From assembly GCA_021789915.1 (NCBI GenBank), contig JAJYIV010000001.1, forward strand, positions 375-64,374: DNA of 64,000 nt, in the 5' to 3' direction. This DNA comes from a bacterium. GTDB taxonomy: Bacteria; Patescibacteriota; Patescibacteriia; UBA9934; GWF2-40-263. Shown in pieces: positions 3,543 through 56,064 of this stretch (positions are counted from its first letter, which is position 1; each line of letters starts with the position of its first letter). Position numbers and translations under genes: made by a program. The notes beneath the pieces are model-generated. The model worked only from the letters and a program-made list of their open reading frames with translations, had not been told where the DNA came from and did no database searches.

Positions 3543-3544
3543 GG

Positions 3545-3706
3545 ACCTCTGAAAAAATGATGGATTTTCGTTGTCAGCCAAAGGCTGATCAGCCTCTGGC
3601 TGAAATGGGCTGCCGAGCCCCGCGAACCCTACTGAAACGTAGGGAGAGCGGGGTCGGCGGGCGCCCATGAGACGAAAAGACGCCATTTTGCAGAGGTCCC
3701 CTCTAA
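3545..3706. repeat. R5 element, copy A (about 160 bp, terminal inverted repeats GACCTCTGAAAAA..TTTTGCAGAGGTC)
   Basis: The terminal ~35 bp on each side match the reverse complement of 5343-5480 (GACCTCTGAAAAA-GATGGATTTTCGTTG .. GAGACGAAAAG-CGCC-TTTTGC-GAGGTC). Confidence 0.6.
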
Positions 3707-3780: not shown

Positions 3781-4206
3781 ATGGCGAAGAAACTCGTCAC
3801 GCAGATCAAGCTGCAGATCCAGGGCGGCGCCGCCACCCCGGCCCCGCCGGTCGGCCCCGCGCTCGGCCAGCACGGATTGAACATCGCCGGGTTCGTGAAG
3901 CAGTTCAACGACGCGACAGCCAACCGCCGCGGCGAGGTCGTGCCGGTCGTCATCAACGTCTACGACGACCGCACGTTCGACTTCATCATGAAGATCGCGC
4001 CGGCCTCGGAGCTCATCAAAAAGGCGATCGGCCTCGAGAAGGGCTCCGGCAAGCCGCTCACGGACAAAGTCGGCACGCTGTCCAAGGCGCAGCTGCGCGA
4101 GATCGCGCAGAAGAAGCTCCCCGACCTCAACACGACCGACGTCGAAAAGGCGATGAAGATCATTGCCGGCACGGCGCGCCAGATGGGCGTCGCCGTGGAA
4201 GTCTGA
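3781..4206 (+). CDS. rplK: 50S ribosomal protein L11
   Basis: 141 aa. [32 protein letters not shown] is the canonical L11 N-terminus. Confidence 0.95.
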
Positions 4207-4217
4207 ACGACCGCGCT

Positions 4218-4592
4218 ATGTCCAAGGGAGGATCCGTCATCCTGCGCATCTATTTCGCCCTCGTCTCATTCGTGACGCTCATGATCCTCGTCGTCTCGGC
4301 GGGCGATCTGATCAATCTCGGATTGAAGACGTGGGTATTCCCCGCCGCCGACCAGCCCGCCTATGTCGCGCCGTGCCCGACGCCCGTTGCGATGCCGGAC
4401 GGGAAGCCAGCCGTCGCCGACCAGGCCGTCTGCGAACAGCAGCGCGCCGAACAACAGCGCCAGGCCCTCGTGCAGAAAGAGCAGAACGCCGTGCGCGACC
4501 TGTCCTTCCTGCTCGTCGCCGCACCCCTGTTCGCCCTGCACTTCCGCATCGTTCTGCGCGACTGGAAGGAATTGAGGAATGAGAACGCTTAA
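4218..4592 (+). CDS. hypothetical small membrane protein inserted between rplK and rplA
   Basis: 124-aa ORF. Hydrophobic helices at the N- and C-termini. Coding-type codon bias. Fills the rplK-rplA gap exactly. Confidence 0.5.
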   Translation: MSKGGSVILRIYFALVSFVTLMILVVSAGDLINLGLKTWVFPAADQPAYVAPCPTPVAMPDGKPAVADQAVCEQQRAEQQRQALVQKEQNAVRDLSFLLVAAPLFALHFRIVLRDWKELRNENA

Positions 4593-4650
4593 TCCGTTTC
4601 GTGGGAGCCCCGCCCGCAAGCAGGCGGGGCGCCATCACCACATCCATCCT

Positions 4651-5343
4651 ATGTCCGATTCCAAGCGTTTCGCTGCCGTGAAGCAGCTCGTCGACAGGAA
4701 GAAAGCCTACCCGATCGACGAAGCCGTCGCCCTGCTGAAGAAAACCGCGTCCGCCAAGTTCGACGAGGCCGTCGAGCTCCACGTCCGCCTCGGCATCGAC
4801 CCGACCAAGGGCGACCAGCAGGTGCGCGGCGTGATCGCCCTGCCGCACGGCGTGGGCGGCAAGGCCAAGCGTGTCGCCGCGTTCGTGGAAGCCGCCAAAG
4901 AACAGGAGGCCAAGGAAGCCGGCGCCGATCTCGTCGGCGGCGAGGAGCTGATCGGCCAGATCGCCTCCAGCCAGGCCCTGGATTTCGACGTCGCCGTCGC
5001 CACGCCGGCGATGATGCCGAAGCTTGCGAAGCTGGCGAAGCTTTTGGGGCCCAAAGGCCTCATGCCGAACCCGAAGACGGACACGGTGGGACCGAATGTC
5101 GGCAGGATGGTCGCCGAGCAGAAGGCGGGCAAACAGAGCTTCAAGAACGACGCGACGGGCAACATCCACCAGGTGTTCGGCCGCGCGTCCTTCTCCAAAG
5201 CCGACCTGAAAGACAACCTGAACGCGCTTCTGGACGCCATCCGCAAGCTCAAGCCGTCCTCGTCGAAAGGCATCTACCTGCTGAACGCGACGGTGACGAC
5301 GACGATGGGCCCGGGCATCAAGCTCGAAGTCGCGCAGCAATAA
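4651..5343 (+). CDS. rplA: 50S ribosomal protein L1
   Basis: Start placed at MSDSKRFAAVKQ (ATG 4651). L1 motifs present (DPTKGDQQVRG, GxxLGPKGLMPNPKTDTV). The upstream ORF extension carries a hairpin CCCGCC-CGCAAGCA-GGCGGG. Confidence 0.9.
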   Translation: MSDSKRFAAVKQLVDRKKAYPIDEAVALLKKTASAKFDEAVELHVRLGIDPTKGDQQVRGVIALPHGVGGKAKRVAAFVEAAKEQEAKEAGADLVGGEELIGQIASSQALDFDVAVATPAMMPKLAKLAKLLGPKGLMPNPKTDTVGPNVGRMVAEQKAGKQSFKNDATGNIHQVFGRASFSKADLKDNLNALLDAIRKLKPSSSKGIYLLNATVTTTMGPGIKLEVAQQ

Positions 5344-5480
5344 GCGAAGAGACCTCCGCAAAACGGCGCCTTTTCGTCTCGCGGGGCCCCGCCGCCTCCT
5401 CAACGTACGTTTTCAGTACGTTTCGGAGGTCGGCTTCCCCGCTCAACGAAAATCCATCCGTTTTTCAGAGGTCTCTCAAG
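5343..5480. repeat. R5 element, copy B (inverted relative to copy A)
   Basis: Reverse complement aligns with 3545-3706 at both termini. With copy A it brackets rplK-hyp-rplA. Confidence 0.6.
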
Positions 5481-6254: not shown

Positions 6255-6345
6255 GAAGCCGTTAGCCGTTAGCCTTTAGCCGTTAGCCTTTAGCCAGATA
6301 AAAAGCGGGCTCGGCTAACAGCCAATAGCTAAGGGCTAACAGCCC
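6255..6345. repeat. R4 hairpin element (GTTAGCCGTTAGCCTTTAGCC .. GGCTAACAGCCAATAGCTAAGGGCTAACAGCC) ending 4 nt before the dcd ATG
   Basis: Long imperfect palindrome. Related copies upstream of dnaE (29657-29725) and the DUF2304 gene (52205-52295). Confidence 0.6.
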
Positions 6346-11669: not shown

Positions 11670-12388
11670 TCCCGTCCGTCGCCGATCTCCTGCGCGCCGC
11701 CTGGCGGCTGTATCGGTCCACGCTGGCCCTGCTGTCCGGCTACCTGGCCTGGCTTCTCCTGCCGATCATCGCGCTCGTCCTACTCTCCTTCGCCCCGGCG
11801 GGAGTCGCCGCCGACGCGGCGAGCCTTCTCATCCAATTGGGCGGCGCCGTGCTGTCGATTTGGATTTCGCTCATCGTCATCCGCATCCTTTCCGCCTCGG
11901 CAACCGGCCGGCACGAGGCGCTGCCGGCCGTCATCCGGTCGTCGCGCGAGCGCTTCGGGCCGTTTTTGACGGTCAGCGTGCTGCAAGGAATTGTCGTCCT
12001 GGGCGGCTTCATCCTGCTCATCGTCCCCGGTTTGATCTTCCTCGTGTGGTACGCATTCGCTTCGCTGGAGGCGGCGCTCTCCGGTCGACACGGGCTTGCG
12101 GCCCTCGCGGCAAGCCGGAACCTCGCGCGCGACCGGTTTTGGCCGGTGATGTGGCGCCTGGCGGCCGGCCCCGTCGTGCTCACCGCGTGGTACGCCATCC
12201 TTATGGGGATCATCTTCATTCCGCTCCTCGTCGCCACGGGCACCACGATCGCGGCGGTGACCGGCGACCACCCGCCCATTTGGTTCCTCGCCTTCGACGC
12301 GCTCGGTCAGACGTTCTTCCTCACGCCGCTCTTGCTCGCCTATTCGGTCCTGCTCTACCATTCGCTGGCTGGTGAACGTGAGACGTAG
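11666..12388 (+). CDS. hypothetical polytopic membrane protein (paralog 2)
   Basis: ATGA overlap with the upstream gene. AAGGAG RBS. N-terminus LLRAAWRLYRSTL resembles paralog 1. Confidence 0.6.
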   Translation: MIPSVADLLRAAWRLYRSTLALLSGYLAWLLLPIIALVLLSFAPAGVAADAASLLIQLGGAVLSIWISLIVIRILSASATGRHEALPAVIRSSRERFGPFLTVSVLQGIVVLGGFILLIVPGLIFLVWYAFASLEAALSGRHGLAALAASRNLARDRFWPVMWRLAAGPVVLTAWYAILMGIIFIPLLVATGTTIAAVTGDHPPIWFLAFDALGQTFFLTPLLLAYSVLLYHSLAGERET

Positions 12389-12555
12389 AAAACGTAGAAA
12401 GCGCAGAATCGCTCGTCATAGTCGGAGCCAAACTCGCTCGTAGAAACGACGCGGATGAGACGCTTCTACGATTTCTACGTTCTACGAGCGAGCCGAAGGC
12501 GAGCGATTCTACGTTCTACGAGCCTGGCGCAGCCGGGCGATTCTACGTCTTCAAC
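12389..12555 (+). repeat. R1 element copy 1 (CGTAGAA/TTCTACG-rich, internally inverted)
   Basis: Shares the core TCGCTCGTCA..ACTCGCTCGTAGAAACGACGCGG..GAGACGCTTCTACGA..GAGCGAGCCGAAGGCGAGCGATTCTACG with four other copies. Confidence 0.8.
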
Positions 12556-12569
12556 GCTTCGCGTCCTCT

Positions 12570-21053: not shown

Positions 21054-22895
21054 TTATTCCGGCCGCTTGGCCGCCTCGACCGCGCGCGCAATGAAGTCCG
21101 GCTGCGGGATCACGAGATCTTCTTCCTGCCCGAAGACGTTGACCTTGAAGTCCATCCCTTCGGCTTCCTTCTGGCCGATCACGACCGTCCACGGCACCTT
21201 CATCATCGCCGCGTCGCGGATCTTCTTGCCGACCTTTTCCGGGCTGTCGTCCAGCGCCACGCGCAGGCCCGCCGCCGCGAGCTTCTCCTTCAGGTCGTTC
21301 GCGAAGGGAATGAAATCATCCGAGACGGTCGCGAGACGGATCTGCTCCGGCGCGAGCCACAGCGGGAACGCGCCCGCGAGATGCTCGATCAGCACCGCGG
21401 CAAAGCGTTCGATCGAGCCCATGATCGCGCAATGGATCATCACGATGCGCTCGGATTCTCCTTTTTCGTTGATGCACGAAAGGTCGAAACGCTCCGGCAG
21501 GTTCAGGTCCAGCTGGATCGTCGCGACCTGGTGCTCGCGGCCGAGCGCGTCCATCGCCATGAAATCGAGCTTCGGCCCGTACATCGCCGCCTCGCCCTGG
21601 GCGACGAAGAAATCGGCCTGGCGCGCCCGGGCGATCTTCTCGAGCGCGCGTTCGGCCTCGGCCCAGATTTCCGGCGTGCCGAGGTACTTCTCCGCGCGCG
21701 CCGGATCGTGGAACGAAAGGCGCACGCGGAGCGTGAAGCCGAACGCGCGGTAAAAGCGGTCGATGATCGACCAGATGTTCGCGAATTCCTGCTCGACCTG
21801 GCGGTGCCGGCAGAAGATGTGCGAATCGTCCTGCGTGATCGAGAGGACGCGCGTGAGGCCGCCGAGCTCGCCGGACTGCTCGTCGCGGTAGACCATCGTC
21901 GTCTCGCTGTAGCGCTTCGGCAGCTCGCGGTAGCTGTGCGGCTTGCGCGCGTAGATCTGCGTGTGGTGCGGGCAGTTCATCGGCTTGAGCGCGTACTCGC
22001 GGCCCTCGCGCGCCGCGATGTGGAAGAGCTCGTCGGCGAATTTCGCCCAGTGGCCGGACGTTTCGTAAAGGCTGCGCTTCGTGATGTGCGGAATGGTGAC
22101 GCCCTCGTAGCCGAACGCGGCGCGCAGGTCCTGCACGAAACGGTCGAGCTCGCGGCGCACGATCGTACCGCGCGGCGTCCACAGCGGCAGGCCGCCGCCG
22201 ACCAATTCCGAGAACGTGAACAGGTCGAGTTCCTTGCCGAGCTTGCGGTGGTCGCGCTTCTTCGCTTCCTCGAGCATGGCGAGATATTCGTCGAGCGCCG
22301 CCTGCGTCGCGAAGCAATAGCCGTAGACGCGCTGCAGCTGCGGATTCTTCTCGTTGCCGCGCCAGTATGCGCCGGCGAGCTTGGCGAGCGTGAACGCGCC
22401 GATCTCGCCCGCGTTCGCGACGTGCGGCCCGCGGCACAAGTCGACGAACGGGCCGGTGTAATACACCGACGCCGTTTCGGCTCCCACCCCCCCGCCAGCC
22501 GCCGTGGAACCAGCCGGCAGCCCCCCCTCGGGCAGGGGGGGAATCCCCACATCCTGCGCCTCCTCGGGACGGATGGCCGTGGTCCCCTTCTCCTTCAGCG
22601 CCTTGAGCAGCTCGACCTTGAACGGCTGGTCGCGCTTCTCGAAGAAGACGATCGCGTCGTCGATCGGCATTTCCTCGCGCCGGAACGCGTCGCCGCGCTT
22701 GATGATCTCGCGCATCTTCGCTTCGATCTTCGGAAAATCCTCCTCCGTGATCGGCGCGGGCGTGAGGATGTCGTAATAAAATCCGTCCTCGACGACCGGC
22801 CCGACGCCGAACTTGGCGCCCGGGTAGAGCTCGCTCACCGCGGCGGCGAGCACGTGCGCGGCGGAGTGCCGCATGGCATGGAGTTTCTCATCCAT
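21054..22895 (-). CDS. thrS: threonine--tRNA ligase (no N-terminal TGS domain) with in-frame R3 insertion
   Basis: Start at [17 protein letters not shown] (tRNA_SAD/editing domain). Class II catalytic core and anticodon-binding domain present. Insertion [21 protein letters not shown]. Confidence 0.9.
22485..22548. repeat. R3 G/C-run palindromic element inserted in frame in thrS
   Basis: CCCACCCCCCCGCC..GCCGGCAGCCCCCCCTCGGGCAGGGGGGG. The reverse complement matches the GT4 copy at 50921-50982. Confidence 0.7.
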
Positions 22896-23238
22896 ACGTG
22901 TTGAACAAAAAAGAACCCAATCCTCTTGAGTTCTCGGGACCCTGCCGCGAAGGCGGGGCGGTTCCACCCGATTTGCCGCACGCCGATGGCTCCGGCGCGG
23001 GCCGCTTCTTTGCGAACGGAAAGCCTCCGTCCAGGCCGCTCGAGAGGCGGTACGGCTCCCCGCGCGTTCTTCCGGCTTGCAGTCACGGCCGGAAGTCCCT
23101 GGAAACGCGCGAACGGGAGGGCATGTCCTCTGTCATTGCGATAGAAACAGGGTACCAAGCTGTCTGCACGCGTCAAGGCAAAAAAGAAAAGATCCGCAAG
23201 GAGAAGCGGATCAGGACGCGGAGACGGCGCGGCGGTCG
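22896..23238 (-). promoter_or_regulatory. long thrS 5' leader with T-box-like motif and leader terminator
   Basis: Minus-strand read contains GGGTGGAACCGC (T-box consensus GGGTGGNACCGCG) followed by hairpin AGAACTCAAGAGGATTGGGTTCT + TTTTTT immediately 5' of the ATG. 343-nt leader. Confidence 0.3.
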
Positions 23239-29656: not shown

Positions 29657-29725
29657 GCGTCTTTAGGCGTTAGGCGTGATCCCTTGCCTAACGGCTAACA
29701 GCTAAAGGCTAACGGTTGGAGAATA
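29657..29725. repeat. R4 hairpin element directly upstream of the dnaE start codon
   Basis: In gene orientation: CCGTTAGCCTTTAGCTGTTAGCCGTTAGG..CACGCCTAACGCCTAAAGA, then 10 nt, then ATG. Same arm sequences and placement as the dcd copy. Confidence 0.6.
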
Positions 29726-32083: not shown

Positions 32084-32434
32084 TCAGGCTTGATCTTCTT
32101 CGTCTTCCATCACGTCCTGAAGACGGCGGCGGGCTGGCAGGCGGCGGCGCGCCTGGACGATCTGGTCTTTTTTCTCGTGGGCGTACTCGATGACGCCCTT
32201 CAGTCCTTCCACCAGGAGCGTCGTCATGGACGTCAGGCTTTCAAAACGGCTCTTCATGGCCGTAATGGCGCTTTCGATGCGCGCGATCTTCTCCTGCGCC
32301 ATCTCCAGCGTATCGTTGACGCTGCGCAAGATGCTGCCCAGCTGCCAGATGAGCCAGAACACGGCGACGGAGAGCCACAGCGCGCAGAACGCCAGCACGA
32401 TGTATAGGATATCGAGCGGGGTAAATGATGGCAT
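32084..32434 (-). CDS. DUF948-like small membrane protein
   Basis: 116 aa. N-terminal TM helix, then coiled-coil. Confidence 0.55.
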   Translation of the reverse strand: MPSFTPLDILYIVLAFCALWLSVAVFWLIWQLGSILRSVNDTLEMAQEKIARIESAITAMKSRFESLTSMTTLLVEGLKGVIEYAHEKKDQIVQARRRLPARRRLQDVMEDEEDQA

Positions 32435-32448
32435 ATCCTCCTTGAAAA

Positions 32449-32642
32449 TGAAGCGAGCCGAAGGCGAGCGATTCTACGGAAAACGTAGAACGTAGAATCG
32501 CTCGTCACGGTTGGGGCCGAACTCGCTCGTAGAAACGACGCGGACGAGACGCTTCTACGAGCGAGCCGAAGGCGAGCGGTTCTACGTCTTCTACGTTCTA
32601 CGAGCCCGCCGCAGCCGGGCGATTCCACGTCTTCTACGTCCG
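32449..32642 (+). repeat. R1 element copy 2
   Basis: Same core as the other R1 copies. Its terminal TTCTACG motif provides the TAG stop codon of pheT. Confidence 0.8.
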
Positions 32643-35072
32643 CATCATAGCATGGAATCGCGACGCAAGCACGTCGCGCAGCTTTCGCATCTCCGTCTCG
32701 ACGTCATCCGAAGACAGCGTGCGGTCGGCGGCACGGAAGACGAGATGCAGGGCGAGCGACTTCTGCCCCGCAGGCACGCCTTCGCCCTCGTACACGTCGA
32801 ACAGCGCGACCTCGTGCAGCAGCGGCGACGCCTCCCGCAGCGCCTGTTCGACGCGGGCGTATTCGATCTTGCGGTCCACGACGAACGCAAGATCGCGCTT
32901 GCTCTCCGGGAACGCCGGGATGGGCCGGTACGCCGTCGACGAGGACGCGTGGCGCACCAGACGGTCGAACGACGCGTCGACCAGGAACGCCGGCTGCTCG
33001 AGCCCGAACGCCGCCGCCGTGGCGCGGGACACCTGCCCGATCATGCCGACATGCTCGTGCTCGCCGATCCACACGGCCGCCGAGCGCATGCGGTGCCAGC
33101 GCGGATCGTCCGTGCCCGAGGCCAGGCGTTCCATCCGCAGCGTGCGGATGCCGAGCGCCGCGGCGAGGCGCTCCAGGGCGCCCTTCGCGCGGCGGAATCC
33201 AACGTCCCCGTCGACGCCGGCGAAGGCCATCGCGAGGCGCAGCGTCTGCGCCGGCAATTCGTCCTTCGACGGCTCATACGCGGGCGCCAGCTCGAACAAA
33301 TCCAGGCGCGGCTGACGGCGCTGGTTGGCCTCGACGACCGTGAGCAGCGACGGGACGAGCGACGGGCGCATGAATTCCTGGTCCGCCGACAGCGGGTTGT
33401 CGATCTTCACGGCCAGATCCGTCGACAGGCCGTAGCGTTCCAATTGCCTGGCCGAGACGAAACTGGAGTTATAGCTCTCCGTCAAGCCCGCGCCGGCCAG
33501 GATCTCCTTCGTCCGGCGCTCCCAGCCGATGAGCGGATCCGCCGGCGCGGCGGCGGCCGTGCTGCACGGCAGCGTGGACGGAATATGGGCGTAGCCGTAC
33601 AGACGGGCGATCTCCTCGACGAAGTCGCGCGGACCTTCGATGTCGTGGTCGCGCCAATACGGCACGGTGCAGCGATAGACGCGGCCTCTCCCTTTTTCCA
33701 AGGGGGAGTCGGATGGGGTTGCCGGCGCCAGCGCGAACCCGAGGCGCTTCAGGAGCGCGACCTGTTCCTTGGCGGGGATTTCCACGCCTATGAGCGCCGA
33801 GGCCTTCTGCGGATCAAACGGGAAGGCGGGCGTCTGATACGGCTTGGTTTCGATCGAGGAAACCTGCGAGGCCACGCGCGCGCCGGCCACGGTGCGCAGC
33901 AATTCGACCGCGCGGGCCAGCGCCGGGCCGGCCGCTTGCGCGGACAGGCCCTTTTCAAACAGCGACGACGCGTCGGTTTGCAGGTTGAGCGCGCGGGCCG
34001 TTCGGCGGATGCTCACCGGATCGAAGACGGCCGACTCGAGCACGACGCGCGTCGTCGCGGCGGTCGTGCCGCTCGCCCGGCCGCCGATCACGCCGGCGAT
34101 CGCCGCGGGCTTGTCGCGGTCGGCGATCACGAGCATGTCCGGCGTGAGCGCGTGGGTTTTCCCGTCCAGAGCCTCGATCGATTCCCCCGCCCGCGCGCGG
34201 CGCACGAAGATGCCGGCTCCGGCGAGCGCACCCGCGTCGAAGGCGTGCAGCGGATGGCCGAGCTCGAGCAGGACGTAGTTCGTAACGTCCACGACGTTGT
34301 TGATCGGCGCATGGCCCGCCAAGAGCAGCGCGCGCTGCAGCCACCACGGCGACGGGCCGACCTTGACGTGATCCAGCACCACGGCCTCGTACTTGGGCGC
34401 GAGCTCCGGCGCGTCCACCGTGACCGGCAGCGTCGGCACGTCGGCCGGGACGGCCGGCAGGCGCTTGGGCTTCCACGTGAACTTCCCGCCCACGGCGGCG
34501 AACCCTTCGCGCGCCTGGCCCACGATGCTCATGCCATCCGGGCGGTTGCCCGTGACTTCGATGTCCAGGATCACGTCGTTCAACCCCAAGGCGTCCGCGA
34601 GCGGCGTGCCCGCCTCGGCGCGCGTGAGCTTCGTCAGATCCCAAATCGGGCGCTCGCCTTCGAGCGCCAGGTCGAAGCCCAGCTCTTCGGGCGCGCAAAT
34701 CATGCCATGGCTCTTCTGTCCGCGGATTTCCGTCTCCTGCAGCACGACCGGCTCCCCTTCCCCGTGCCAGCGCACGGACGATCCCGGCAGGGCGACGGCG
34801 ACGCGCTGATTTTTTTTGAGATTGGTGCCGCCGCACACGATCTGCACCGCGGCCGTGCCGATGTCCACCCGGCAGACGCGCAGCTTGTCGGCGTTGGGAT
34901 GCTTCTCGACGGAATCAATCACGCCGACGACGATGTGGTCGAAGCGCGCGGCGACGTCTTCCATGCGCTCGACGCCGTTGCCGGCGGCCGTCGTGCGGCG
35001 CGCGAACTCCTCGACGGTCAGATCCGTCTTCAGGTATTCGCGGATCCAGTTGTAGGAGGCGAGGAGGTTCAT
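32634..35072 (-). CDS. pheT: phenylalanine--tRNA ligase beta subunit
   Basis: About 812 aa. N-terminal tRNA-binding domain, B3/B4, B5 (FDP..), and FDX-ACB C-terminus. ATGA overlap with the four-helix-bundle gene. Confidence 0.9.
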   Translation of the reverse strand: MNLLASYNWIREYLKTDLTVEEFARRTTAAGNGVERMEDVAARFDHIVVGVIDSVEKHPNADKLRVCRVDIGTAAVQIVCGGTNLKKNQRVAVALPGSSVRWHGEGEPVVLQETEIRGQKSHGMICAPEELGFDLALEGERPIWDLTKLTRAEAGTPLADALGLNDVILDIEVTGNRPDGMSIVGQAREGFAAVGGKFTWKPKRLPAVPADVPTLPVTVDAPELAPKYEAVVLDHVKVGPSPWWLQRALLLAGHAPINNVVDVTNYVLLELGHPLHAFDAGALAGAGIFVRRARAGESIEALDGKTHALTPDMLVIADRDKPAAIAGVIGGRASGTTAATTRVVLESAVFDPVSIRRTARALNLQTDASSLFEKGLSAQAAGPALARAVELLRTVAGARVASQVSSIETKPYQTPAFPFDPQKASALIGVEIPAKEQVALLKRLGFALAPATPSDSPLEKGRGRVYRCTVPYWRDHDIEGPRDFVEEIARLYGYAHIPSTLPCSTAAAAPADPLIGWERRTKEILAGAGLTESYNSSFVSARQLERYGLSTDLAVKIDNPLSADQEFMRPSLVPSLLTVVEANQRRQPRLDLFELAPAYEPSKDELPAQTLRLAMAFAGVDGDVGFRRAKGALERLAAALGIRTLRMERLASGTDDPRWHRMRSAAVWIGEHEHVGMIGQVSRATAAAFGLEQPAFLVDASFDRLVRHASSSTAYRPIPAFPESKRDLAFVVDRKIEYARVEQALREASPLLHEVALFDVYEGEGVPAGQKSLALHLVFRAADRTLSSDDVETEMRKLRDVLASRFHAMMRT

Positions 35073-35461
35073 AGGGGGCGGCATTCGGCGCTCGGCGCTC
35101 GGCGCTCGGATTCAAGAGAAGCAATGAGTCGATTGAGCATGCGCATCACGTCGTCGAGCAATCGAACGGAAGGTTCACCGTCCGACGTTTGGATGAAAGC
35201 AAGTCGTGTCGCGATGAGCAATTGCGTTTCGAGTTCCCCACCGGATCCAAAGGCGATAAGGAGAAACCTACGAAATTCAAAAGGGCTTCCCCGAAGTTTC
35301 CCCTCCGCGATATTTGAAGGAATGGAAATGGCCGACCGACGCATCTGGCTTGCCAAGCCGTATCGTTCCTCTTGGGGGAAAGACGATGTCACGCGATAAA
35401 TCTCCAAAGACAAGGCAACGGACTTCTGCCATACGTCCAAATCCTTGTACGTGTTCCCCAT
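35069..35461 (-). CDS. four-helix-bundle protein (23S rRNA intervening-sequence protein family) inserted between pheS and pheT
   Basis: Start at MGNTYKDLDVWQKS. Family signature DL.VWQKS...YR....FP.EE.Y.L.SQ.RRSA.SI..NIAEG. Local GC about 50%. Confidence 0.7.
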   Translation of the reverse strand: MGNTYKDLDVWQKSVALSLEIYRVTSSFPQEERYGLASQMRRSAISIPSNIAEGKLRGSPFEFRRFLLIAFGSGGELETQLLIATRLAFIQTSDGEPSVRLLDDVMRMLNRLIASLESERRAPSAECRPL

Positions 35462-47012: not shown

Positions 47013-47075
47013 CGGGAACGGACGGCTTTCGTAGGATGAAGCCAACGCGTTAACGCCTTTGTTTTGCGAAAAAAT

Positions 47076-47630
47076 ATGTCCACCGGCATCTGGATCGTCG
47101 TCCTCATCCTGCTCATCGTCGTCATCTGGTTCATGTCCACGTACAACGGCCTGGTGAAGCTGCGCAACCTGGTCGAGGAGGGATGGTCGGACATCAACGT
47201 CCAGCTCAAGCGGCGCTACGACCTGATCCCGAACTTGGTGAACGCCGTGAAGGGGTATGCCGCCCACGAGTCCGGGGTGTTTGAGAAAGTGACGGAGGCG
47301 CGCGCCGCCGCCATGAACGCGACCGTCCCCGCCGATCGGGCGCAGGCCGAGAACCAGCTCTCGCAGACGCTCAAGTCGCTGTTCGCCGTGGCCGAGGCGT
47401 ATCCGCAGCTGCAGGCCGCGGGCAATTTCGCGGAGCTGCAGCAGGAACTGACGGACACGGAAAACAAGATCGAATCCTCGCGCCGCTTCTATAATGGCGC
47501 CGTGCGCGACTTCGACATCAAGCTCCAAGTTTTCCCCACCAATCTGATCGCCGGCACCTTCGGCTTTGCCAAGAAGGATTTCTTCCAGGCGCCGGATGAC
47601 GTCAACGCCGCGCCGGAGGTCAAGTTCTAG
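47076..47630 (+). CDS. LemA family protein
   Basis: N-terminal TM, then the conserved LemA core (VKLRNLVEEGWSDINVQLKRRYDLIPNLV, RRFYNGAVRDFD). Alternative start 47064. Confidence 0.85.
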   Translation: MSTGIWIVVLILLIVVIWFMSTYNGLVKLRNLVEEGWSDINVQLKRRYDLIPNLVNAVKGYAAHESGVFEKVTEARAAAMNATVPADRAQAENQLSQTLKSLFAVAEAYPQLQAAGNFAELQQELTDTENKIESSRRFYNGAVRDFDIKLQVFPTNLIAGTFGFAKKDFFQAPDDVNAAPEVKF

Positions 47631-47900
47631 GAGAATCGCTTGTAGAACGTAGAAGACGTAGAATCGCTCGGCCTTCGGCCTCGTTCGTAGAACGTAGAAG
47701 ACGTAGAATCGCTCGGCTGCGCCGGGCTCGTAGAGCGTAGAAATCGTAGGAATGTCTCGTCCGCGTCGTTTCTACGTTTTCTACGTCTTCTACGCTTTCT
47801 ACGTTGAAACGCCGTCCGAACCGCGTCGTTTCTCCGAGCGAGTCTGGCCCCAACCGTGACGAGCGATTCTCCGTTCTACGCTTTCTACGTTTCTACATCT
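47631..47900 (-). repeat. R1 element copy 3 (inverted orientation)
   Basis: Starts immediately after the LemA stop codon. Reverse complement aligns with copy 4. Supplies the TAG stop of gene 47893-48930. Confidence 0.8.
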
Positions 47901-48930
47901 TCTTCGGCGCGAGCAGGCGCTTCGCGTAGGCGTAGGCCTCGTTCGCTTCGTTGTACAACGAGCCGGAGGCGGACTTGATGAAGCGCACGTAGAACGTCAG
48001 CGCCTCCTCCGCCGACACGGTTTGGCCGAACACGCGCGCAAGACGCAGAGCCAGGCGGAACCTGCCCTTGTTCAACGCGCTTGGAACCGCCCACCTGGCC
48101 GCCGACGCGAGGACGGCGTCTGCTTGAGGATCATGGGCGGCCGCCCAGCGGAGCGTCTGCACAAGATCGTCGGCCACCACCCGCTTCAGCCGGAACACCT
48201 CCAGACGGAAGGCGACGTTGTCGGAATCGATCGGCACGTCGAGCTGCCGGGCCGTCCGCTCGATCGTTCGGAACGGAACGTCCATGCGCGAAACGACGAG
48301 CTGCCGCACGAACGCCCTCGACATGGGTTTGTGCGCAAGCGCGCGCATCAGGGAGCGCAACCGCGGGAACGAATGGTCGCGCATGAGCGCCTGCGACAGG
48401 AGGCGCCGCTTCTCCTCGTTCCACAGCGGATCGTTCAGCCGCGCGGCCATCCGCCGGGCGACGACGCCGTTGCCGACCCACACGGCCCGCCGGCGCAGGA
48501 AGCGCCGGCCGTCCTCGAGGCGCCCCGCCTTGCGAAAGGCCGCTTCCGCCGCGCGCACGTCCGCGTCGAACGGCGTCATCTTGCGCGCGACATTGCAGCC
48601 GTAGCGCCACCAGTCCGCCGGACGGAAGAAGCCGCGCGGTCGCGCCTTGACGCGCGCAAAGACGTCCACGCCGTGCGGCGCCTCGACGAGCAGGCGATGC
48701 AAGGGACGCAGATCCCCGTGCTGGGCCGCGATGGCTTCCGCCCAGACGACGGCATGGGAGCCGTGCAACGCGGTGGCGTTCAAGCGCGCGGCTTCCTTCA
48801 TGTGCCCGATTGGAAGCGGCGGAATGGCGGACGGCTCCGAGTACTCGAAGGTCAGCTCCCGCGTTCCCGTGCGAAGGGCCAGCGCCTCGAGCGCCGCCTC
48901 CGCGGCAACGGTCTGATCGCTTTTTTCCAT
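47893..48930 (-). CDS. hypothetical protein
   Basis: Start at MEKSDQTVAAE after GGAGTGAG. Arg-rich alpha-helical. Confidence 0.5.
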   Translation of the reverse strand: MEKSDQTVAAEAALEALALRTGTRELTFEYSEPSAIPPLPIGHMKEAARLNATALHGSHAVVWAEAIAAQHGDLRPLHRLLVEAPHGVDVFARVKARPRGFFRPADWWRYGCNVARKMTPFDADVRAAEAAFRKAGRLEDGRRFLRRRAVWVGNGVVARRMAARLNDPLWNEEKRRLLSQALMRDHSFPRLRSLMRALAHKPMSRAFVRQLVVSRMDVPFRTIERTARQLDVPIDSDNVAFRLEVFRLKRVVADDLVQTLRWAAAHDPQADAVLASAARWAVPSALNKGRFRLALRLARVFGQTVSAEEALTFYVRFIKSASGSLYNEANEAYAYAKRLLAPKKM

Positions 48931-49008
48931 CGTCTCACTCCTCCGGCGCCTGATGGCGCCCATGGGCCCCGTGCCCGCGCGCGACTTAAGCACGCGCGGG
49001 GCGGCATG

Positions 49009-50223
49009 TCAAGGCGAAGCGATCGCCTCGGCCATGAGCTGCTCCAGCCGGTCGACGTAATGGCCCAAGCGGTACGGCTCCATCGCCTGCTGGATCTCTC
49101 CCGCCTTGGCGCGCCACGCGTCGGCCTCCGCGTTCAGCCGGCGGAAGGCGGCCAGCCATTCGTCGCGCCGGCCCGGCGTCACGAGCAAGCCGTTTTTTTC
49201 ATCGCGCACCAGCTCCCCCACGCCGCCGAGGCGCGAGGCGACGACCGGCACGCCAGCCAGCAGCGCCTCGTAGATGACCGTCGGGGAATTCTCATAGCAC
49301 AGGGACGGGACGACGGCGGCGTCGGAGATGGCGAAGAGCTTCATCAGATTGTCCAGCGAGACGAATCCGTGGTACACGACGCGCGGATCATGCCGGGCCC
49401 AGGCGGCGACTTCGCGCGACAGCGTGCCGTCGCCCGCCACGTGCAGGAGGAACGGAACGTCGAGCGCGCCCAGCGTCTTCAGGAGGAAGCGCAAACCCTT
49501 GTGCTCCTCGAGCTGCCCGGCAAACAGCAGGCTCAGCGGCGCGCCGTCGGGACGGCTGCCGCGGGGGCCCGGCGGCATTTCCGGGGCCGGGTTTGGCAGA
49601 ACCTCCATGCGGCTGCCCCCGAAAAGATGCCGTGAACGGTAAAAGTCCGCCAGCCAATGGGACGGCGAGATGACGACGCCGGGCGAGCCGACGGTGCGGC
49701 GCACCTGGCCTTCGTACCACCAGCGGCAGGCGCCGCGGTTCAGGAACGCGTCTTCGCGTCCGTACATGAGGAGGCCGCTCGGCACCGACAGCTGCACGTC
49801 GTGCAGCGTGTGCACGTGCGGCAGCCCCAGGCGGCGTATGGCCGCGGCGATCTGCAATCCGATGCCTTTGAGATTGTGGGTCAGCACGGCGTCCGGCCGT
49901 TCCTCCGCCGCCAGGCGGCGGAACATGCCGGCCGGCAGGGGGCTGTACAAATCGATCAGATGCCACAGCGCGCGCGCCGGAAACGGATGCGCGGCGGCCG
50001 ACAGCGGATGGTACAGGTTGGGCGGGTAGAAGCGGTAAACCGTCTCCAGCTGCGGTTCGGCCTCCAGACGGAACGCCGAAAACGGCCCGCCGTACGGCAT
50101 GGTGGACAGCACGGACACCTTGTGGCCGCGCGCGTACAGCGCGTGCGCCGTGCGCCAGGCGATCTGTTCGGCGCCGCCGCGGGCGTAAGGCGGATAGAGA
50201 TTGGAGACGATGGCGAGGCGCAT
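49009..50223 (-). CDS. glycosyltransferase family 4
   Basis: 404 aa. N-terminus MRLAIVSNLYPPYARGGAE. C-terminal EX7E-type GT4 domain. Confidence 0.85.
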   Translation of the reverse strand: MRLAIVSNLYPPYARGGAEQIAWRTAHALYARGHKVSVLSTMPYGGPFSAFRLEAEPQLETVYRFYPPNLYHPLSAAAHPFPARALWHLIDLYSPLPAGMFRRLAAEERPDAVLTHNLKGIGLQIAAAIRRLGLPHVHTLHDVQLSVPSGLLMYGREDAFLNRGACRWWYEGQVRRTVGSPGVVISPSHWLADFYRSRHLFGGSRMEVLPNPAPEMPPGPRGSRPDGAPLSLLFAGQLEEHKGLRFLLKTLGALDVPFLLHVAGDGTLSREVAAWARHDPRVVYHGFVSLDNLMKLFAISDAAVVPSLCYENSPTVIYEALLAGVPVVASRLGGVGELVRDEKNGLLVTPGRRDEWLAAFRRLNAEADAWRAKAGEIQQAMEPYRLGHYVDRLEQLMAEAIASP

Positions 50224-50470
50224 AGCGGGGAGCGTAGAAAACGTAGAACGTAGGATCGCTCGTCACGGTTGGGGCCAGACTCGCTCGTAGAAACGACGCG
50301 GTTCGGACGGCGTTTCAACGTAGAAAGCGTAGAAGACGTAGAAAACGTAGAAACGACGCGGACGAGACATTCCTACGATTTCTACGCTCTACGAGCCCGG
50401 CGCAGCCGGGCGATTCTACGTCTTGTACGTTCTACGAACGAGGCCGAAGGCCGAGCGATTCTACGCCTTC
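50224..50470 (+). repeat. R1 element copy 4
   Basis: Begins at the nucleotide after the GT4 start codon and contains the stop codon of the next GT4. Core identical to copy 5. Confidence 0.8.
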
Positions 50471-51655
50471 GCGATACACCTCCTCCAACCGATCCATCAG
50501 CGGATCCCAGGCGTAATCGCGCAGGACGCGCGCCCGCGCCGCCAAGCCGAGACGCTCGCGCAACGCCGCGTCGGGAAGCAGCGTCCGCAGGGCGTCCGCC
50601 AGCGCGGCGGCGTCGCCCGCCGGCACGCACCAACCGGTTTCCCCGTGCAGCACGACGCTGCGCACACCCGGGAGGTCGGACACGACGCTCGGCACGCCCG
50701 AGGCGGCGGCCTCGAGCGCGACCAGGCCGAAGGCTTCCCCGCTGGAAACGGACGGCAGCACGTGGACCTGCGAGGCGCGGTAGAGGTCCGGCAATGCCTC
50801 GTCCGCCACGGCGCCGAGGAATCGCACGCGTTCCGCCATGCCGAGACGCCGCGCCTCGGCCTCGTAGGCCGCGCGCAAATCCCCGTCGCCGACGATGAGG
50901 GCGTTCCACGGCGCCACGCGCCCCCCCCTGCCCGAGGGGGGGCTGCCGGCCGGCCGCAAGGCGGCAGGCGGGGGGGTGGGAGCGGCCGCGATGCGGGCCA
51001 GCGCTTCCAGCAGCACCGGCACGCCCTTGAACGCGTGCGCCTCGTCCAACCCGCCGACGAACAGGACCGTCGGCCCGCTCCCCAGCGAGAGCCGCGCGCG
51101 CGTCTCCGACGCGTCGCCCGGATGGAATCGCTCGCCGTCCACGCCGAACGGCAGCTCGACGAGGCGGTCGGCCAGCTTCGGCAGCGCGGCGAGCGCCGAG
51201 GAGCGGGCGTAATCGAGCGAGCTCACGAGCACGCGGTCCGCCCGCGCGATGAGCCACGGGAACAGCGCGCGCCGGTGCGCCTCGAACGCCAGCCCCTTCA
51301 GCCCGTTGGCATGCGTATCCATGTGGTACGTCACGACGAGCGCCTGATCGCCCCGCAGCGCCTTGCGCACGATGGTCGGCTCCGCGCCGCCGAAGAACGG
51401 ATAATGCAGGTGCACCAAATCAAAACCGGACAGGCGGCGGAACAGCGACGGCACGGCAGCGGCGTTGCCGACCGAGAGCGGCGACGGCACGCGGTGGACG
51501 AAATCCGGATCTTCCGGAATCTCGCGGTCGAAGCGCGGCGTGAACACGTGGACGTCCTCGCCGCGCGCGCGCAAACGCTCCGTGTACGCGTGCGCCACGT
51601 TTCCCATGCCGCCGTGGTACGGCGGGTAGGTTGAGACGACCTGGGCGATGTTCAT
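50432..51655 (-). CDS. glycosyltransferase family 4 with in-frame R3 insertion; C-terminus encoded by R1
   Basis: MNIAQVVSTYPPYHGGMGN. Insertion [26 protein letters not shown]-terminal ..ESLGLRPRS* lies inside the R1 repeat. Confidence 0.85.
   Translation of the reverse strand: MNIAQVVSTYPPYHGGMGNVAHAYTERLRARGEDVHVFTPRFDREIPEDPDFVHRVPSPLSVGNAAAVPSLFRRLSGFDLVHLHYPFFGGAEPTIVRKALRGDQALVVTYHMDTHANGLKGLAFEAHRRALFPWLIARADRVLVSSLDYARSSALAALPKLADRLVELPFGVDGERFHPGDASETRARLSLGSGPTVLFVGGLDEAHAFKGVPVLLEALARIAAAPTPPPAALRPAGSPPSGRGGRVAPWNALIVGDGDLRAAYEAEARRLGMAERVRFLGAVADEALPDLYRASQVHVLPSVSSGEAFGLVALEAAASGVPSVVSDLPGVRSVVLHGETGWCVPAGDAAALADALRTLLPDAALRERLGLAARARVLRDYAWDPLMDRLEEVYREGVESLGLRPRS
50921..50982. 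repeat. R3 G/C-run palindromic element inserted in frame in GT4
   Basis: CCCCCCCCTGCCCGAGGGGGGGCTGCCGGC..GCGGCAGGCGGGGGGGTGGG is the reverse complement of the thrS copy. Confidence 0.7.
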
Positions 51656-51861
51656 AACGGACGTAGAAAACGTAGAATCGCTCGTCGCGGTTGGGGCCAG
51701 ACTCGCTCGTAGAACGTAGAAAGCGTAGAAGACGTAGAAAACGCAGAAACGACGCGGGTGAGACGCTTCGACGCTTCTACGCCTTCTACGAGCGAGCCGA
51801 AGGCGAGCGATTCTACGCCTTCTACGCTCTACGAGCGAGGCCGAAGGCCGAGCGATTCTAC
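51656..51861 (+). repeat. R1 element copy 5
   Basis: Begins right after the GT4 start codon. Terminal TTCTAC provides the TAG stop of the DUF2304 gene. Confidence 0.8.
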
Positions 51862-52196
51862 TCCTGTTTCCTCTCTAAATCCTTCAGCGCCAGCGCGCGC
51901 ACGAGCTTGGTGATCTCGCGCTGCGTTTCCTCGATCTTCACGAACAGGCGGAAGGACAGATAGAACAACAGCGCGAGGGCGGCGTAGATGACGAGATCGG
52001 AGCCGCGGCCGACGCCCACGGCATTGGCCAGCCACGTCGTCGACTGCGGCAGCAGCGCCACGGCGGCCACGGCCATCCACAGGATGATGAATCCGAGCAG
52101 CCCGGCGGCGCGCAGCCTGCCGGCGCGAAACTGCGCCGCGGCGCGCGCGACGGCGAAAACGGCGAAGGCGAGGATGAGAAGCTGGATGGGAAGCAT
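51858..52196 (-). CDS. DUF2304-like small membrane protein (GT2 partner)
   Basis: Start MLPIQLLILAFAVFAV. Three TM helices. Sits downstream of a GT2 gene, as is usual for DUF2304. Confidence 0.6.
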   Translation of the reverse strand: MLPIQLLILAFAVFAVARAAAQFRAGRLRAAGLLGFIILWMAVAAVALLPQSTTWLANAVGVGRGSDLVIYAALALLFYLSFRLFVKIEETQREITKLVRALALKDLERKQE

Positions 52197-54189: not shown

Positions 54190-56064
54190 TCATCCTCCTA
54201 CCAGCACCTGCCGGCTGAAGACGTCGTCGCTTTGCGCCGACAGCGGCAGGCCTTCGGGCAGCGTCTCCCAGGAGCCGGCGAGCATGCGCACGAACAAGCG
54301 TTCGAAATGGTTCGCCGCGAGATCCGTCACGCGCCGCCGCGTTCCCCGGTCGACGTACCAGGCGTCGGTCGATCCCGGCGCTTCCATGAGCGCCCCGGAC
54401 GGCCAGGATGAGGAAAGCGCGGCCTGGTCGATATCCGGCCCCTGGCGGAACTTGGTGAAATAGGTCGGCTCGACGTCGATGACGCGCGACGCCCAATCGG
54501 GCCCTCCCAGCGCGCGCGCCGCCGCTTCGTCCTTGATCCAGCGCAGCGTATAACCGTCGGGCGAGACGAAATACGTCCTCGGGTCGCTGGCGATCTTTAC
54601 CCAGTACGTGCCGGGCCGTACGAGGACGGGAGCGCCCAACGGAATCGCCGCCATGTCGGAAGGCGGAATCGTCCTCACGCTGGAAAAATCAGGGAACCAG
54701 CTGCGGAAGATGACGGCGTTCGGGAACGGATGGCGCTTGCCGTCCAGGCCGACGATATAGACCGTCGGCAAGGCGGCAAGGCGGATCAAGGAATCGACGG
54801 GAGCCGACGCAGGCAAAGCGGCATTGGCGGCCGCGCGGTCGTACGCGGACGGCGAGGATTCCCCTCCTGCCAAGCCTGTCCTGAGCGAAGTCGAAGGAGG
54901 GGGGCTGCCTGCTGGCCGCCCGTTGACAGGCGGGGGGGTCTGCATCGCGACCGGCACGGCGGCGCCCGTGTGGTCGAAGGAGCCCGCGATCTGCAGCGCC
55001 CGCCCGACATTCAGCCGGCCCGCGCCGACGGCGCCGACGGGTGCGCCGCCCGTCGACGTGATCGGATCCGCCGACAGCTGCAGGATGGTGCGGATCTGGT
55101 CCGGCGTGAGCGTCGGGTGGACGGAAAGCAGCAGGGCGGCCGCGCCGGAAACCAGCGGCGCGGCGAAGGACGTGCCGGACCAGCCGTCGTCGTACGGCTT
55201 GGTGAAATCGCCGTATTGCGGCCGGTAAAGCTCCGTGCTGAAGACGTCCGTCCCCGGCGCCGCGATGTCCACGCATCCGCCGCCGTAGTTGGAGAAGCTC
55301 GCGCGCGCGTCATTCGCATCCGTCGCGGCGACGCCGATGACCGGCCGGACGCCGTTGGCGTTGAAACAGGCCGGGTAATCCGGCGCCTGCGACAGGTCCG
55401 TTCCCCCGTCGGCATTCCCGACGGCCGCGACGACCACCACTCCTTGCCGATAGGCCCGCTCGATTTCCGTTTCGAGGTCCGGATCCAGGCTGGTGCCGCT
55501 GAAACTCAGGTTGATGACGCGGGCGCCGTGGTCGACGGCGTAGCGGATGGCCGGCACCACGTTGGCGCTGTCCCCGCGCCCGAAGGCGTCCACGATGCGC
55601 AGCGGCATGATTTGGACGCCGAAAGCCAGTCCGGCGATGCCCTGGGCGTTGTCGGCCGTCGCGGCGATTTCGCCGGCGATGATGGTTCCGTGGTCGGCGC
55701 CGTCCGGCAGCCAGCCCTGCGACAGGTCCGGCTCCGGGTCATTGGTGTTTTCCACGAAGTCCCAGCCGTGCACGTCGTCCACGTAGCCGTCATGGTCGTC
55801 GTCGATGCCGTTGCCGGGAATCTCCCCGGGATTCGTCCAGATATGATCCTTGAGGTCGGGATGCGAGAGGTCCACGCCGGAATCCAGGATGGCAACGATG
55901 ACGCTCGAGGAGCCGCGCGCATAGTCCCAGGCCGCGGGAGCGCCGACGCGCGCCAAGTAATCCTGCTTGGCGAAGTCAGGATCGTTCGGGACATAGGCCA
56001 GGGCCGTGAGCGGGATGAACCACGCGGCGAGCAGGGCGGCGATCAGGCGTTTCATGCGACGCAT
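54190..56064 (-). CDS. secreted S8 subtilisin-like serine protease with C-terminal extension and in-frame R2/R3 composite insertion
   Basis: Signal peptide MKRLIAALLAAWFIPLTALA. Catalytic triad motifs (AILDSGVD, HGT, GTSFAAP). Confidence 0.85.
   Translation of the reverse strand: MRRMKRLIAALLAAWFIPLTALAYVPNDPDFAKQDYLARVGAPAAWDYARGSSSVIVAILDSGVDLSHPDLKDHIWTNPGEIPGNGIDDDHDGYVDDVHGWDFVENTNDPEPDLSQGWLPDGADHGTIIAGEIAATADNAQGIAGLAFGVQIMPLRIVDAFGRGDSANVVPAIRYAVDHGARVINLSFSGTSLDPDLETEIERAYRQGVVVVAAVGNADGGTDLSQAPDYPACFNANGVRPVIGVAATDANDARASFSNYGGGCVDIAAPGTDVFSTELYRPQYGDFTKPYDDGWSGTSFAAPLVSGAAALLLSVHPTLTPDQIRTILQLSADPITSTGGAPVGAVGAGRLNVGRALQIAGSFDHTGAAVPVAMQTPPPVNGRPAGSPPPSTSLRTGLAGGESSPSAYDRAAANAALPASAPVDSLIRLAALPTVYIVGLDGKRHPFPNAVIFRSWFPDFSSVRTIPPSDMAAIPLGAPVLVRPGTYWVKIASDPRTYFVSPDGYTLRWIKDEAAARALGGPDWASRVIDVEPTYFTKFRQGPDIDQAALSSSWPSGALMEAPGSTDAWYVDRGTRRRVTDLAANHFERLFVRMLAGSWETLPEGLPLSAQSDDVFSRQVLVGG
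54861..54950. repeat. composite R2-fragment/R3 element inserted in frame in the subtilase
   Basis: CTGTCCTGAGCGAAGTCGAAGG (R2-like) joined to GAGGGGGGCTGCC..GGCGGGGGGGTCTGC (R3). Confidence 0.6.

Follow-up and report, generated by a model that had tools for sequence, protein, structure and literature searches.

R1, a palindromic heptamer repeat family at gene ends and operon junctions in a bacterium of the Candidate Phyla Radiation

Genomes of the Candidate Phyla Radiation (CPR; Patescibacteria) are considered to be small and compact, with little mobile DNA. Among short interspersed repeats of other bacteria, the mycobacterial interspersed repetitive units (MIRUs) of Mycobacterium lie at operon gene junctions with the flanking stop and start codons at or in the repeat ends, and they are direct tandem units of 40-100 bp with small coupled open reading frames (ORFs), not palindromes; repetitive extragenic palindromic (REP) sequences are not known to carry a target-site duplication. 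This study concerns R1, a family of palindromic heptamer repeats in a 64,000-nt stretch (GC about 65%) of contig JAJYIV010000001.1 of the patescibacterial assembly GCA_021789915.1, hereafter the window, and the effect of R1 on the genes that it touches. The closest published kind are the GTAG-tagged REP sequences and bacterial interspersed mosaic elements (BIMEs) described by Di Nocera, De Gregorio and Rocco (2013; PMC3733652), whose termini often give a TAG stop codon to the flanking ORF; its abstract places tagged REPs in eight phyla and does not mention CPR. The heptanucleotide sites of Geobacter are mostly paired (PMC2700814). No description of REP-like families, or of MITE-like ones (MITE, miniature inverted-repeat transposable element), in CPR was found in the literature searched, and when full texts were queried with the heptamer strings, the only matches were primers and oligonucleotides.

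R1 is multi-copy, its copies are insertions relative to empty orthologous sites, with no target-site duplication at the two insertions reconstructed, they supply TAG stop codons and C-terminal tails to adjoining genes, and they separate stop and start codons that ancestrally overlapped. We regard R1 as probably a non-coding, modular, long-palindromic repeat of the REP/BIME/MITE kind in Uhrbacteria-like CPR bacteria, added at the 3' ends of genes and at operon junctions.

Copies of R1 and empty orthologous junctions

The five copies were aligned, and a profile made from them was run over the whole window using nhmmer and matched at five places only (E = 9e-52 to 3e-80), namely 12371-12562, 32478-32650 with a fragment at 32452-32478, 47632-47902 (inverted), 50221-50477 and 51649-51873. 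This bears out the five-copy palindromic heptamer family proposed in a first-pass annotation of the same DNA. The copies, designated c1 to c5 (Table 1), are 176-266 nt long; their combined length of 1,076 nt amounts to 1.7% of the window. Counted over both strands, the window holds 53 instances of CGTAGAA, compared with 3.4 +/- 1.7 in dinucleotide-preserving shuffles, and all but two of these CGTAGAA/TTCTACG heptamers (at 24971 and 47988) fall within the five copies, where they form clusters at 12384-12547, 32472-32638, 47648-47889, 50233-50465 and 51662-51826. With respect to transcription both orientations of R1 occur; four copies have a co-directional gene context, one a convergent and none a divergent one. 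The 116-aa gene beside c2 retains its own AAGGAGG ribosome-binding site.

Pairwise global identity among the copies ranges from 0.55 to 0.73 with the exception of c3 and c4 (0.88). These two are 97% complementary over 238 ungapped nt (47652-47889 versus 50233-50470), which points to a recent copying event. The repeat search likewise agreed with the annotated arrangement, in which c3 and c4 form an inverted pair around the glycosyltransferase gene GT4a and the ORFan hyp345, and c4 and c5 a direct pair around a second glycosyltransferase gene, GT4b.

In the arms of R1, CGTAGAA heptamers run inward from the left end and TTCTACG heptamers run toward the right end, with a start-to-start spacing of 7 or 9 nt, and the two arrays meet at a centre of the form CGTAGAA-ACGACGCGGACGAGACGC-TTCTACG. 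Small GC stem-loops, of which each copy holds one to three, follow the plan GTAGAA-TCG-(GGCC TTC GGCC or CCCGG CTGCG CCGGG)-CTCG-TAGAA and have stems of 4-5 bp, and the main pairing is that of heptamer array against heptamer array over 176-266 nt. Every heptamer contains GTAG, and each GC hairpin is bordered by heptamers, but the word is repeated many-fold and is paired in the predicted fold. The range in length reflects the number of modules, which varies among copies. A core pattern, TCGCTCGT..GT.GG.GCC..ACTCGCTCG, is common to all five copies and, among the related loci examined, its matches are confined to the window's own species. Single-stranded copies were predicted to fold as long branched hairpins; for c4 the predicted minimum free energy was -112.2 kcal/mol for the - strand (z = -6.6) and -108.3 kcal/mol for the + strand (z = -4.8). 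Located at tight junctions inside operons, R1 copies are expected to be co-transcribed with the flanking genes and to be able to fold into a very stable hairpin.

The operon containing c4 and c5 was compared with that of three relatives of 63-66% GC, L123 (Logan SRR22388057), L124/L125 (GCA_964499955.1) and L126 (GCA_964616135.1), whose operon proteins are 60-78% identical to those of the window. The order epimerase-GT2-DUF2304-GT4b-GT4a is shared by the window and all three relatives, with GT4b and GT4a in the same orientation. At the DUF2304-GT4b junction the genes overlap by 4 nt or are 1-2 nt apart in all three, where the window has c5 (202 nt), and at the GT4b-GT4a junction L123, L124 and L126 have an ATGA overlap, where the window has c4 (about 240 nt). 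According to the protein alignments DUF2304 is of normal length, the N-termini of GT4b and GT4a are normal, and all three proteins are collinear at their termini across the relatives. GT4a begins with ATGAAC in the relatives, which supplies the overlapping TGA for GT4b, and with ATGCGC in the window; a second codon that no longer starts with A (AAC) fits a GT4b stop codon that now lies inside c4. The gap between pheT and the next gene measures 199 nt in the window (c2), compared with 8 nt and 20 nt in two further relatives, L313 and L314. Empty sites in relatives, which had been set beforehand as a check on the first-pass annotation, were in this way found at the c4, c5 and c2 junctions. The copies themselves do not begin at the nucleotide after the GT4 start codons, as had been stated there; homology sets in at a distance of 9 and 6 nt from them (the codons end at 50223 and 51655, and the first heptamers stand at 50233 and 51662).

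Comparison with the three empty sites revealed no target-site duplication at either reconstructed insertion (GAAGGC/c4/CTCCCC and CAGGAG/c5/TCCGTT). This bears on the possibility that R1 is a classical MITE, that is, a deletion derivative of a DDE-type insertion sequence (IS) mobilised in trans via its terminal inverted repeats. A length of 176-266 nt, inverted termini, multiple copies and insertion polymorphism relative to relatives are all in keeping with such an element, but the lack of duplications at c4 and c5 argues against a DDE-type MITE and is compatible with single-strand HUH/Y1 transposition, as it is with template switching and gene conversion. The copies, moreover, differ in length and in their modules far more than typical MITEs do, and neither the 64-kb window nor the related loci, a small search space, yielded an IS with matching ends. 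We consider a classical MITE very unlikely. The label MITE-like, which the locus had been given, holds in a broad sense, since R1 is non-coding, multi-copy, palindromic and present or absent across relatives, although neither a target-site duplication at the two reconstructed sites nor a parent IS or transposase in the sequences scanned was seen.

The same junctions bear on two further proposals of the first-pass annotation, in which the repeats mark the boundary of a mobile cassette around the glycosyltransferases or form a conserved regulatory or non-coding RNA module. The inverted c3/c4 and direct c4/c5 flanking pairs would suit att sites or other recombination boundaries, and the strong predicted RNA fold would suit a riboswitch, a leader or a small-RNA gene. 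However, in the three relatives DUF2304, GT4b and GT4a abut or overlap in the same order and orientation without repeats, so that the glycosyltransferases are residents to which the repeats came; two other copies flank gatB and pheT. A search of the whole window against Rfam 15 at the gathering threshold gave only a tRNA, and a search of 47500-52000 at E <= 1 gave no match. Promoter and terminator consensus scans found no signal above the shuffle background within the elements. Folding energy and G-U pair counts were compared between sense and antisense for 14 elements, with the sense strand better in eight, the antisense strand in four and two ties, and thus with no consistent sense advantage. 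Together with the empty orthologous junctions and the occurrence of both orientations, these results make a cassette boundary or an RNA module of this sort extremely improbable.

The sole gene that the window has in addition to the operon of the relatives is hyp345, which is absent from all three. Its product (345 aa, encoded with high GC at third codon positions) had no Pfam or NCBIfam match and no homologue but itself among 5.8 billion proteins, and a single-sequence AlphaFold model was all-helical with a predicted local distance difference test score of 56. As a candidate mobilising enzyme hyp345 was rejected, having neither a domain match nor a homologue and a model too poor for a fold search.

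Heptamers were also seen at two junctions that lack an R1 copy. The 'empty' pheT junction of L313 (8440-8460) reads GTGTAGAAATCGCTATG (GTGTAGAAATCGCT) and thereby contains a single heptamer followed by ATCGCT as in R1, overlapping the native TAG. The epimerase-GT2 junction of L123, which is empty in the window, carries a small hairpin of three CGTGGAA units facing two TTCTACG units, with a TAG stop in the first heptamer and an ATG 2 nt past the last heptamer; the R1 profile did not score this heptamer variant as a family member in nhmmer. If the hairpin does belong to the family, the family would be dynamic, with the junctions that are filled differing by lineage.

Gene ends and the c3 join

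Stop-codon statistics were based on 52 rough gene calls in the window. A TAG in the outermost heptamer ends all six genes that touch an element, compared with a TAG in 5 of the 46 others (Fisher p = 2.3e-5). Terminal TAG codons had been annotated for four genes only; the additional two are the ORF upstream of c1, with its TAG at 12386-12388 within the first heptamer, and LemA, the stop codon of which (ending at 47630) is the TAG in the terminal heptamer of c3. One of the four, pheT, did not receive its stop codon from the repeat: the same codon is TAG in L313 and L314, both without the element, and is therefore native. GT4b, in contrast, has lost about five native C-terminal residues and gained 11 (GVESLGLRPRS) from c4, and because its orthologues end about five residues past a conserved ..VY the tail can be taken as element sequence. 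The ORF 51829-52080 also terminates in GVESLGLRPRS, so that the shared peptide noted previously is real, but this ORF runs out of frame over the real DUF2304 gene.

From either end of R1 inward, the median distance to a stop codon was 36 nt, compared with 180 nt in control windows. Heptamers that face inward from both ends, in combination with the alternation of 7 and 9 nt, have the consequence that an incoming ORF soon meets a stop, and such early termination on entering R1 from either side explains both the 'donated' stop codons and the short shared tail. R1 splits translationally coupled genes and rewrites stop codons and C-termini. One of the motifs GGAG, GAGG, AGGA or AAGG is present within 20 nt upstream of only about a quarter of the rough gene calls, and the Shine-Dalgarno-poor starts of GT4a, GT4b and gatB, just downstream of elements, are for this reason not unusual.

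Proteins identical to those of the window are present in GCA_027328745.1 and in one European Nucleotide Archive (ENA) assembly. A sequence of the same species, L001, is 99.993% identical to window positions 61655-47642 and diverges 11 nt before the LemA-proximal end of c3; beyond this point it contains a short sixth R1 copy, a 790-aa gene and a CDP-alcohol phosphatidyltransferase gene, in an order that matches the relatives. In L313 the gene that follows LemA encodes a Clp-type ATPase. Two contigs of one ENA assembly end inside c3 from opposite sides, at window positions 47747 and about 47797 (the latter by coordinate arithmetic). Considering the conflict in gene order and the contig ends inside c3, the join between LemA and c3 arose either because R1 copies recombined or because the assembly made a chimera across the repeat. 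R1 lies at the very points at which assemblies made independently from the same population break off or conflict, which matters for the fragmentation of metagenome-assembled genomes (MAGs), for possible chimeric joins and for mis-called gene ends.

Table 1. Positions of R1 copies, of features derived from or adjoining them, and of copies of a second repeat family (window coordinates unless stated otherwise).
Feature	Position	Strand	Context or remark
R1 copy c1	12381..12556	+	between membrane-protein ORF (ends 12388) and gatB (starts 12570), both +
R1 copy c2	32449..32640	+	between pheT (32634-35084, -) and 116-aa gene (32084-32434, -)
R1 copy c3	47631..47896	-	inverted relative to other copies; between convergent LemA (47064-47630, +) and ORFan hyp345 (47893-48930, -)
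R1 copy c4	50233..50472	+	in last few codons of GT4b, directly upstream of GT4a start codon
R1 copy c5	51660..51861	+	between DUF2304 stop and GT4b start codon
Family-specific 32-nt core TCGCTCGTCACGGTTGGGGCCAGACTCGCTCG	50256..50287 in c4	+	found in 5/5 copies by alignment
R1 heptamer array			written as (CGTAGAANN)n
TAG stop of pheT	32634..32636	-	overlaps outermost heptamer of c2
TAG stop of hyp345	47893..47895	-	outermost heptamer of c3
TAG stop of DUF2304	51858..51860	-	outermost (degenerate) heptamer of c5; relatives have TGA or TAA
GT4b C-terminal tail GVESLGLRPRS and TAG stop	50432..50467	-	encoded by c4 (protein alignment)
c3 join	47631-47650 (LemA side); L001 14005-14180		window gene order at odds with L001 and with synteny of relatives, both sides
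G7/C7 family copies	50922-50983; 22480-22541; 54899-54939		in GT4b; in gene 21054-22967 (inverted); in S8 peptidase gene
G7/C7 family copies in L001	L001 14737-14795, 17730-17780, 18116-18156

Distribution and origin

Among named homologues, those nearest to the second glycosyltransferase and to pheT belong to Candidatus Uhrbacteria and 'Patescibacteria group' genomes. The R1 core had no exact match in the metagenome contigs of the Joint Genome Institute (JGI), and the module pattern TTCTACGAG-N8-24-CGATTCTACG-N0-2-TTCTACG matched five of these contigs, whose GC is 44-50%. When species-representative genomes were scanned for the heptamer, elements came to light in four Uhrbacteria MAGs (L022, L025, L071 and L074), one Kaiserbacteria MAG (L032) and one Patescibacteria MAG (L076). 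The elements of these CPR genomes and of the contigs share one design, consisting of (CGTAGAA NN)n, a CGTAGA/TCTACG centre and (NN TTCTACG)n with embedded TCGGCC-loop-GGCCT hairpins, and they were matched by the R1 profile in nhmmer with E = 3e-19 to 2e-6, scores of a kind that repeated words inflate. All CPR elements with a readable context lie between co-directional or convergent housekeeping genes, and several supply a TAG stop. The genes flanking elements are functionally unrelated (gatB, pheT, LemA, glycosyltransferases, NifU, IscS and RseP), and the heptamer is unchanged letter for letter across genomes of 40-66% GC.

An initial impression of a universal motif was set aside. A scan for three heptamers in a row gave at least 120 loci in many phyla, but controls with permuted heptamers showed that such arrays are common background; in viral contigs there were 51 matches for CGTAGAA versus 40 and 83 for two permuted heptamers. 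Since permuted heptamers are as frequent, the phylum breadth of triple arrays, which are often 9-nt coding repeats, is not evidence.

These background frequencies are relevant to the possibility that the elements grow where they stand, starting from short seeds and extending through heptamer slippage and hairpin-templated copying in the manner of a palindromic minisatellite, without moving between sites. Arbitrary heptamers commonly form triple arrays, heptamer number varies among the arms of R1, tandem 7- or 9-nt units are prone to slippage, and the pheT junction of L313 already holds one heptamer with its ATCGCT. Nevertheless, all five copies, although at unrelated loci, have a complex 32-nt core and ordered modules in common, and c3 and c4 are nearly identical; sequence must therefore have been copied between sites, and growth in place as the sole process is very improbable indeed.

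Paired heptamer arrays were observed outside CPR in loci of Geobacter/Geomonas and Syntrophorhabdaceae (L016, L045, L066, L083, L093, L105 and L121) and of Acidobacteriota and an unclassified MAG (L014 and L054). They have the form (TTCTACG)n ... 30-130 nt ... TTAA(CGTAGAA)n, are located, at several loci in each genome, upstream of unrelated housekeeping genes, and reach about 55 units in one array. These paired (TTCTACG)n/(CGTAGAA)n arrays resemble the paired heptanucleotide 'global regulator sites' of G. metallireducens.

Sequence-specific proteins that recognise short repeated words are known for both nucleic acids: the omega repressor of pSM19035 binds unspaced heptads on DNA, and multi-subunit UAG-binding proteins act on RNA. 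It can be envisaged accordingly that the heptamer arrays are binding sites of a conserved sequence-specific protein, on DNA or RNA, and that the elements are regulatory or architectural modules of the host instead of selfish DNA. The heptamer sequence itself, and not merely its complementarity, is conserved across CPR genomes in spite of their range in GC, and its spacing is regular; similar proposals have been made for the Geobacter heptanucleotide arrays (PMC2700814) and the Beggiatoaceae TAACTGA repeats (PMC4679880). Orthologous junctions, however, are empty in close relatives, from which it follows that the neighbouring genes do not depend on an R1 element; the flanking genes have no function in common, no candidate binding protein was identified, and a conserved recognition word is equally expected of a transposase substrate. 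We judge host-module binding sites to be unlikely. The conservation of a 7-nt word among Uhrbacteria whose base composition differs widely points to a protein partner, be it a mobilising enzyme or a binding factor.

A more far-reaching version, to which we give only a slim chance, is that the CGTAGAA hairpin is a conserved CPR device, in which a lineage-wide factor reads the heptamer and the hairpin controls the processing of operon mRNA or the re-initiation of translation. The base of the hairpin would place the upstream stop within a few nt of the downstream start in genomes where Shine-Dalgarno sites are scarce, and conservation of the factor would account for the constancy of the heptamer between 40% and 66% GC. 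Were this true, the R1 hairpin would not be merely selfish DNA.

For R1 as a repeat of the REP/BIME/MITE kind, a mode of spread that leaves no duplication could be single-strand HUH/Y1 transposition resembling that by REP-associated tyrosine transposases (RAYTs), or template switching or gene conversion between copies, while heptamer slippage may alter the length of the arms. By analogy with REPs and BIMEs the hairpin may act on the operon mRNA as a barrier to 3'-exonucleases, as a substrate of RNase III or by lowering downstream translation, and the split genes may lose their translational coupling; the copies may in addition serve as substrates of recombination. Several observations weigh against this reading. 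The exact conservation of the heptamer suggests that a conserved factor recognises it, and could be a sign of a host function instead of selfish spread. No transposase, RAYT or parent IS was detected among the 25 window and locus proteins scanned, and the genes beside the CPR elements are all housekeeping genes. Six copies were seen within the approximately 71 kb of sequence of this species that was read; REP copy number per genome is usually >100. The heptamer at the L313 pheT junction could be a seed, a footprint or chance, and could reflect growth in place. Finally, a REP unit is recognised by a single stem-loop with a stem of 6-13 bp and an unpaired GTAG tag, whereas in R1 the GC stems are 4-5 bp and GTAG lies in arms that are predicted to pair.

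Other repeats were observed in the window. A second family, about 62-69 nt in length and with runs of G7/C7, is found within protein-coding genes in both orientations (Table 1); its copy in GT4b is a clean in-frame insertion of 23 residues relative to the three orthologues, and the copy in the S8 peptidase gene is ambiguous as it falls in a variable linker. This intragenic family resembles the Rickettsia palindromic elements. Two intergenic hairpins (6258-6340 and 29660-29715) are of R1-like design with another heptamer, (C/G)TTAGCC facing GGCTAA(C/G). A third, MITE-like family with the ends GGACCTCTG...CAGAGGTCC is present at 3543-3700 and 5344-5480, inverted around genes 3781-5343.

Comparison with described repeat systems

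As a well-supported repeat family R1 is useful for the annotation of CPR MAGs, and it would be surprising only if the heptamer has a dedicated partner. Compared with the MITEs and with the ERIC, Correia and BOX elements, R1 is likewise a non-autonomous element in the range of 100-300 nt with inverted ends, located in transcribed intergenic regions, polymorphic, modular (as is BOX) and able to alter the ends of neighbouring ORFs. It differs from these in lacking a target-site duplication at the two insertions reconstructed and, in the sequences scanned, a recognisable parent IS, and in having arms that consist of a short tandem word where those elements have a terminal inverted repeat of unique sequence. 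The restriction of tandem 7-nt words to intergenic DNA is shared with the cyanobacterial short tandemly repeated repetitive (STRR) sequences, the Beggiatoaceae TAACTGA repeats (PMC4679880) and the Geobacter arrays (PMC2700814). Those heptanucleotide repeats are mostly simple direct arrays, whereas R1 combines two inverted arrays with embedded GC hairpins and a core, and is demonstrably an insertion relative to relatives.

The likeness is closest to the GTAG REPs and BIMEs, which are also small, GC-rich, palindromic and non-coding, contain the GTAG word and form dimers, head-to-head or tail-to-tail, from which larger hairpins can fold. They too lie between unidirectional and convergent ORFs with TAG at their termini, and some REP members lie inside genes. 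In R1, unlike in REPs, GTAG is part of a tandem 7-nt unit with a 7- or 9-nt period that forms paired arms; the GC stem-loops are 4-5 bp as opposed to 6-13 bp; and the elements are 176-266 nt long with a family-specific core, as opposed to a REP unit of 20-40 bp. The host is a CPR bacterium. A RAYT (Y1/HUH) gene is typically flanked by REPs, and none was seen among the 25 proteins scanned here. R1 was not filed as a REP because a unit stem-loop of the REP type is absent and GTAG lies within a tandem heptamer that is predicted to pair. The donation of TAG stop codons is already reported for GTAG REPs; the architecture of R1 differs from theirs.

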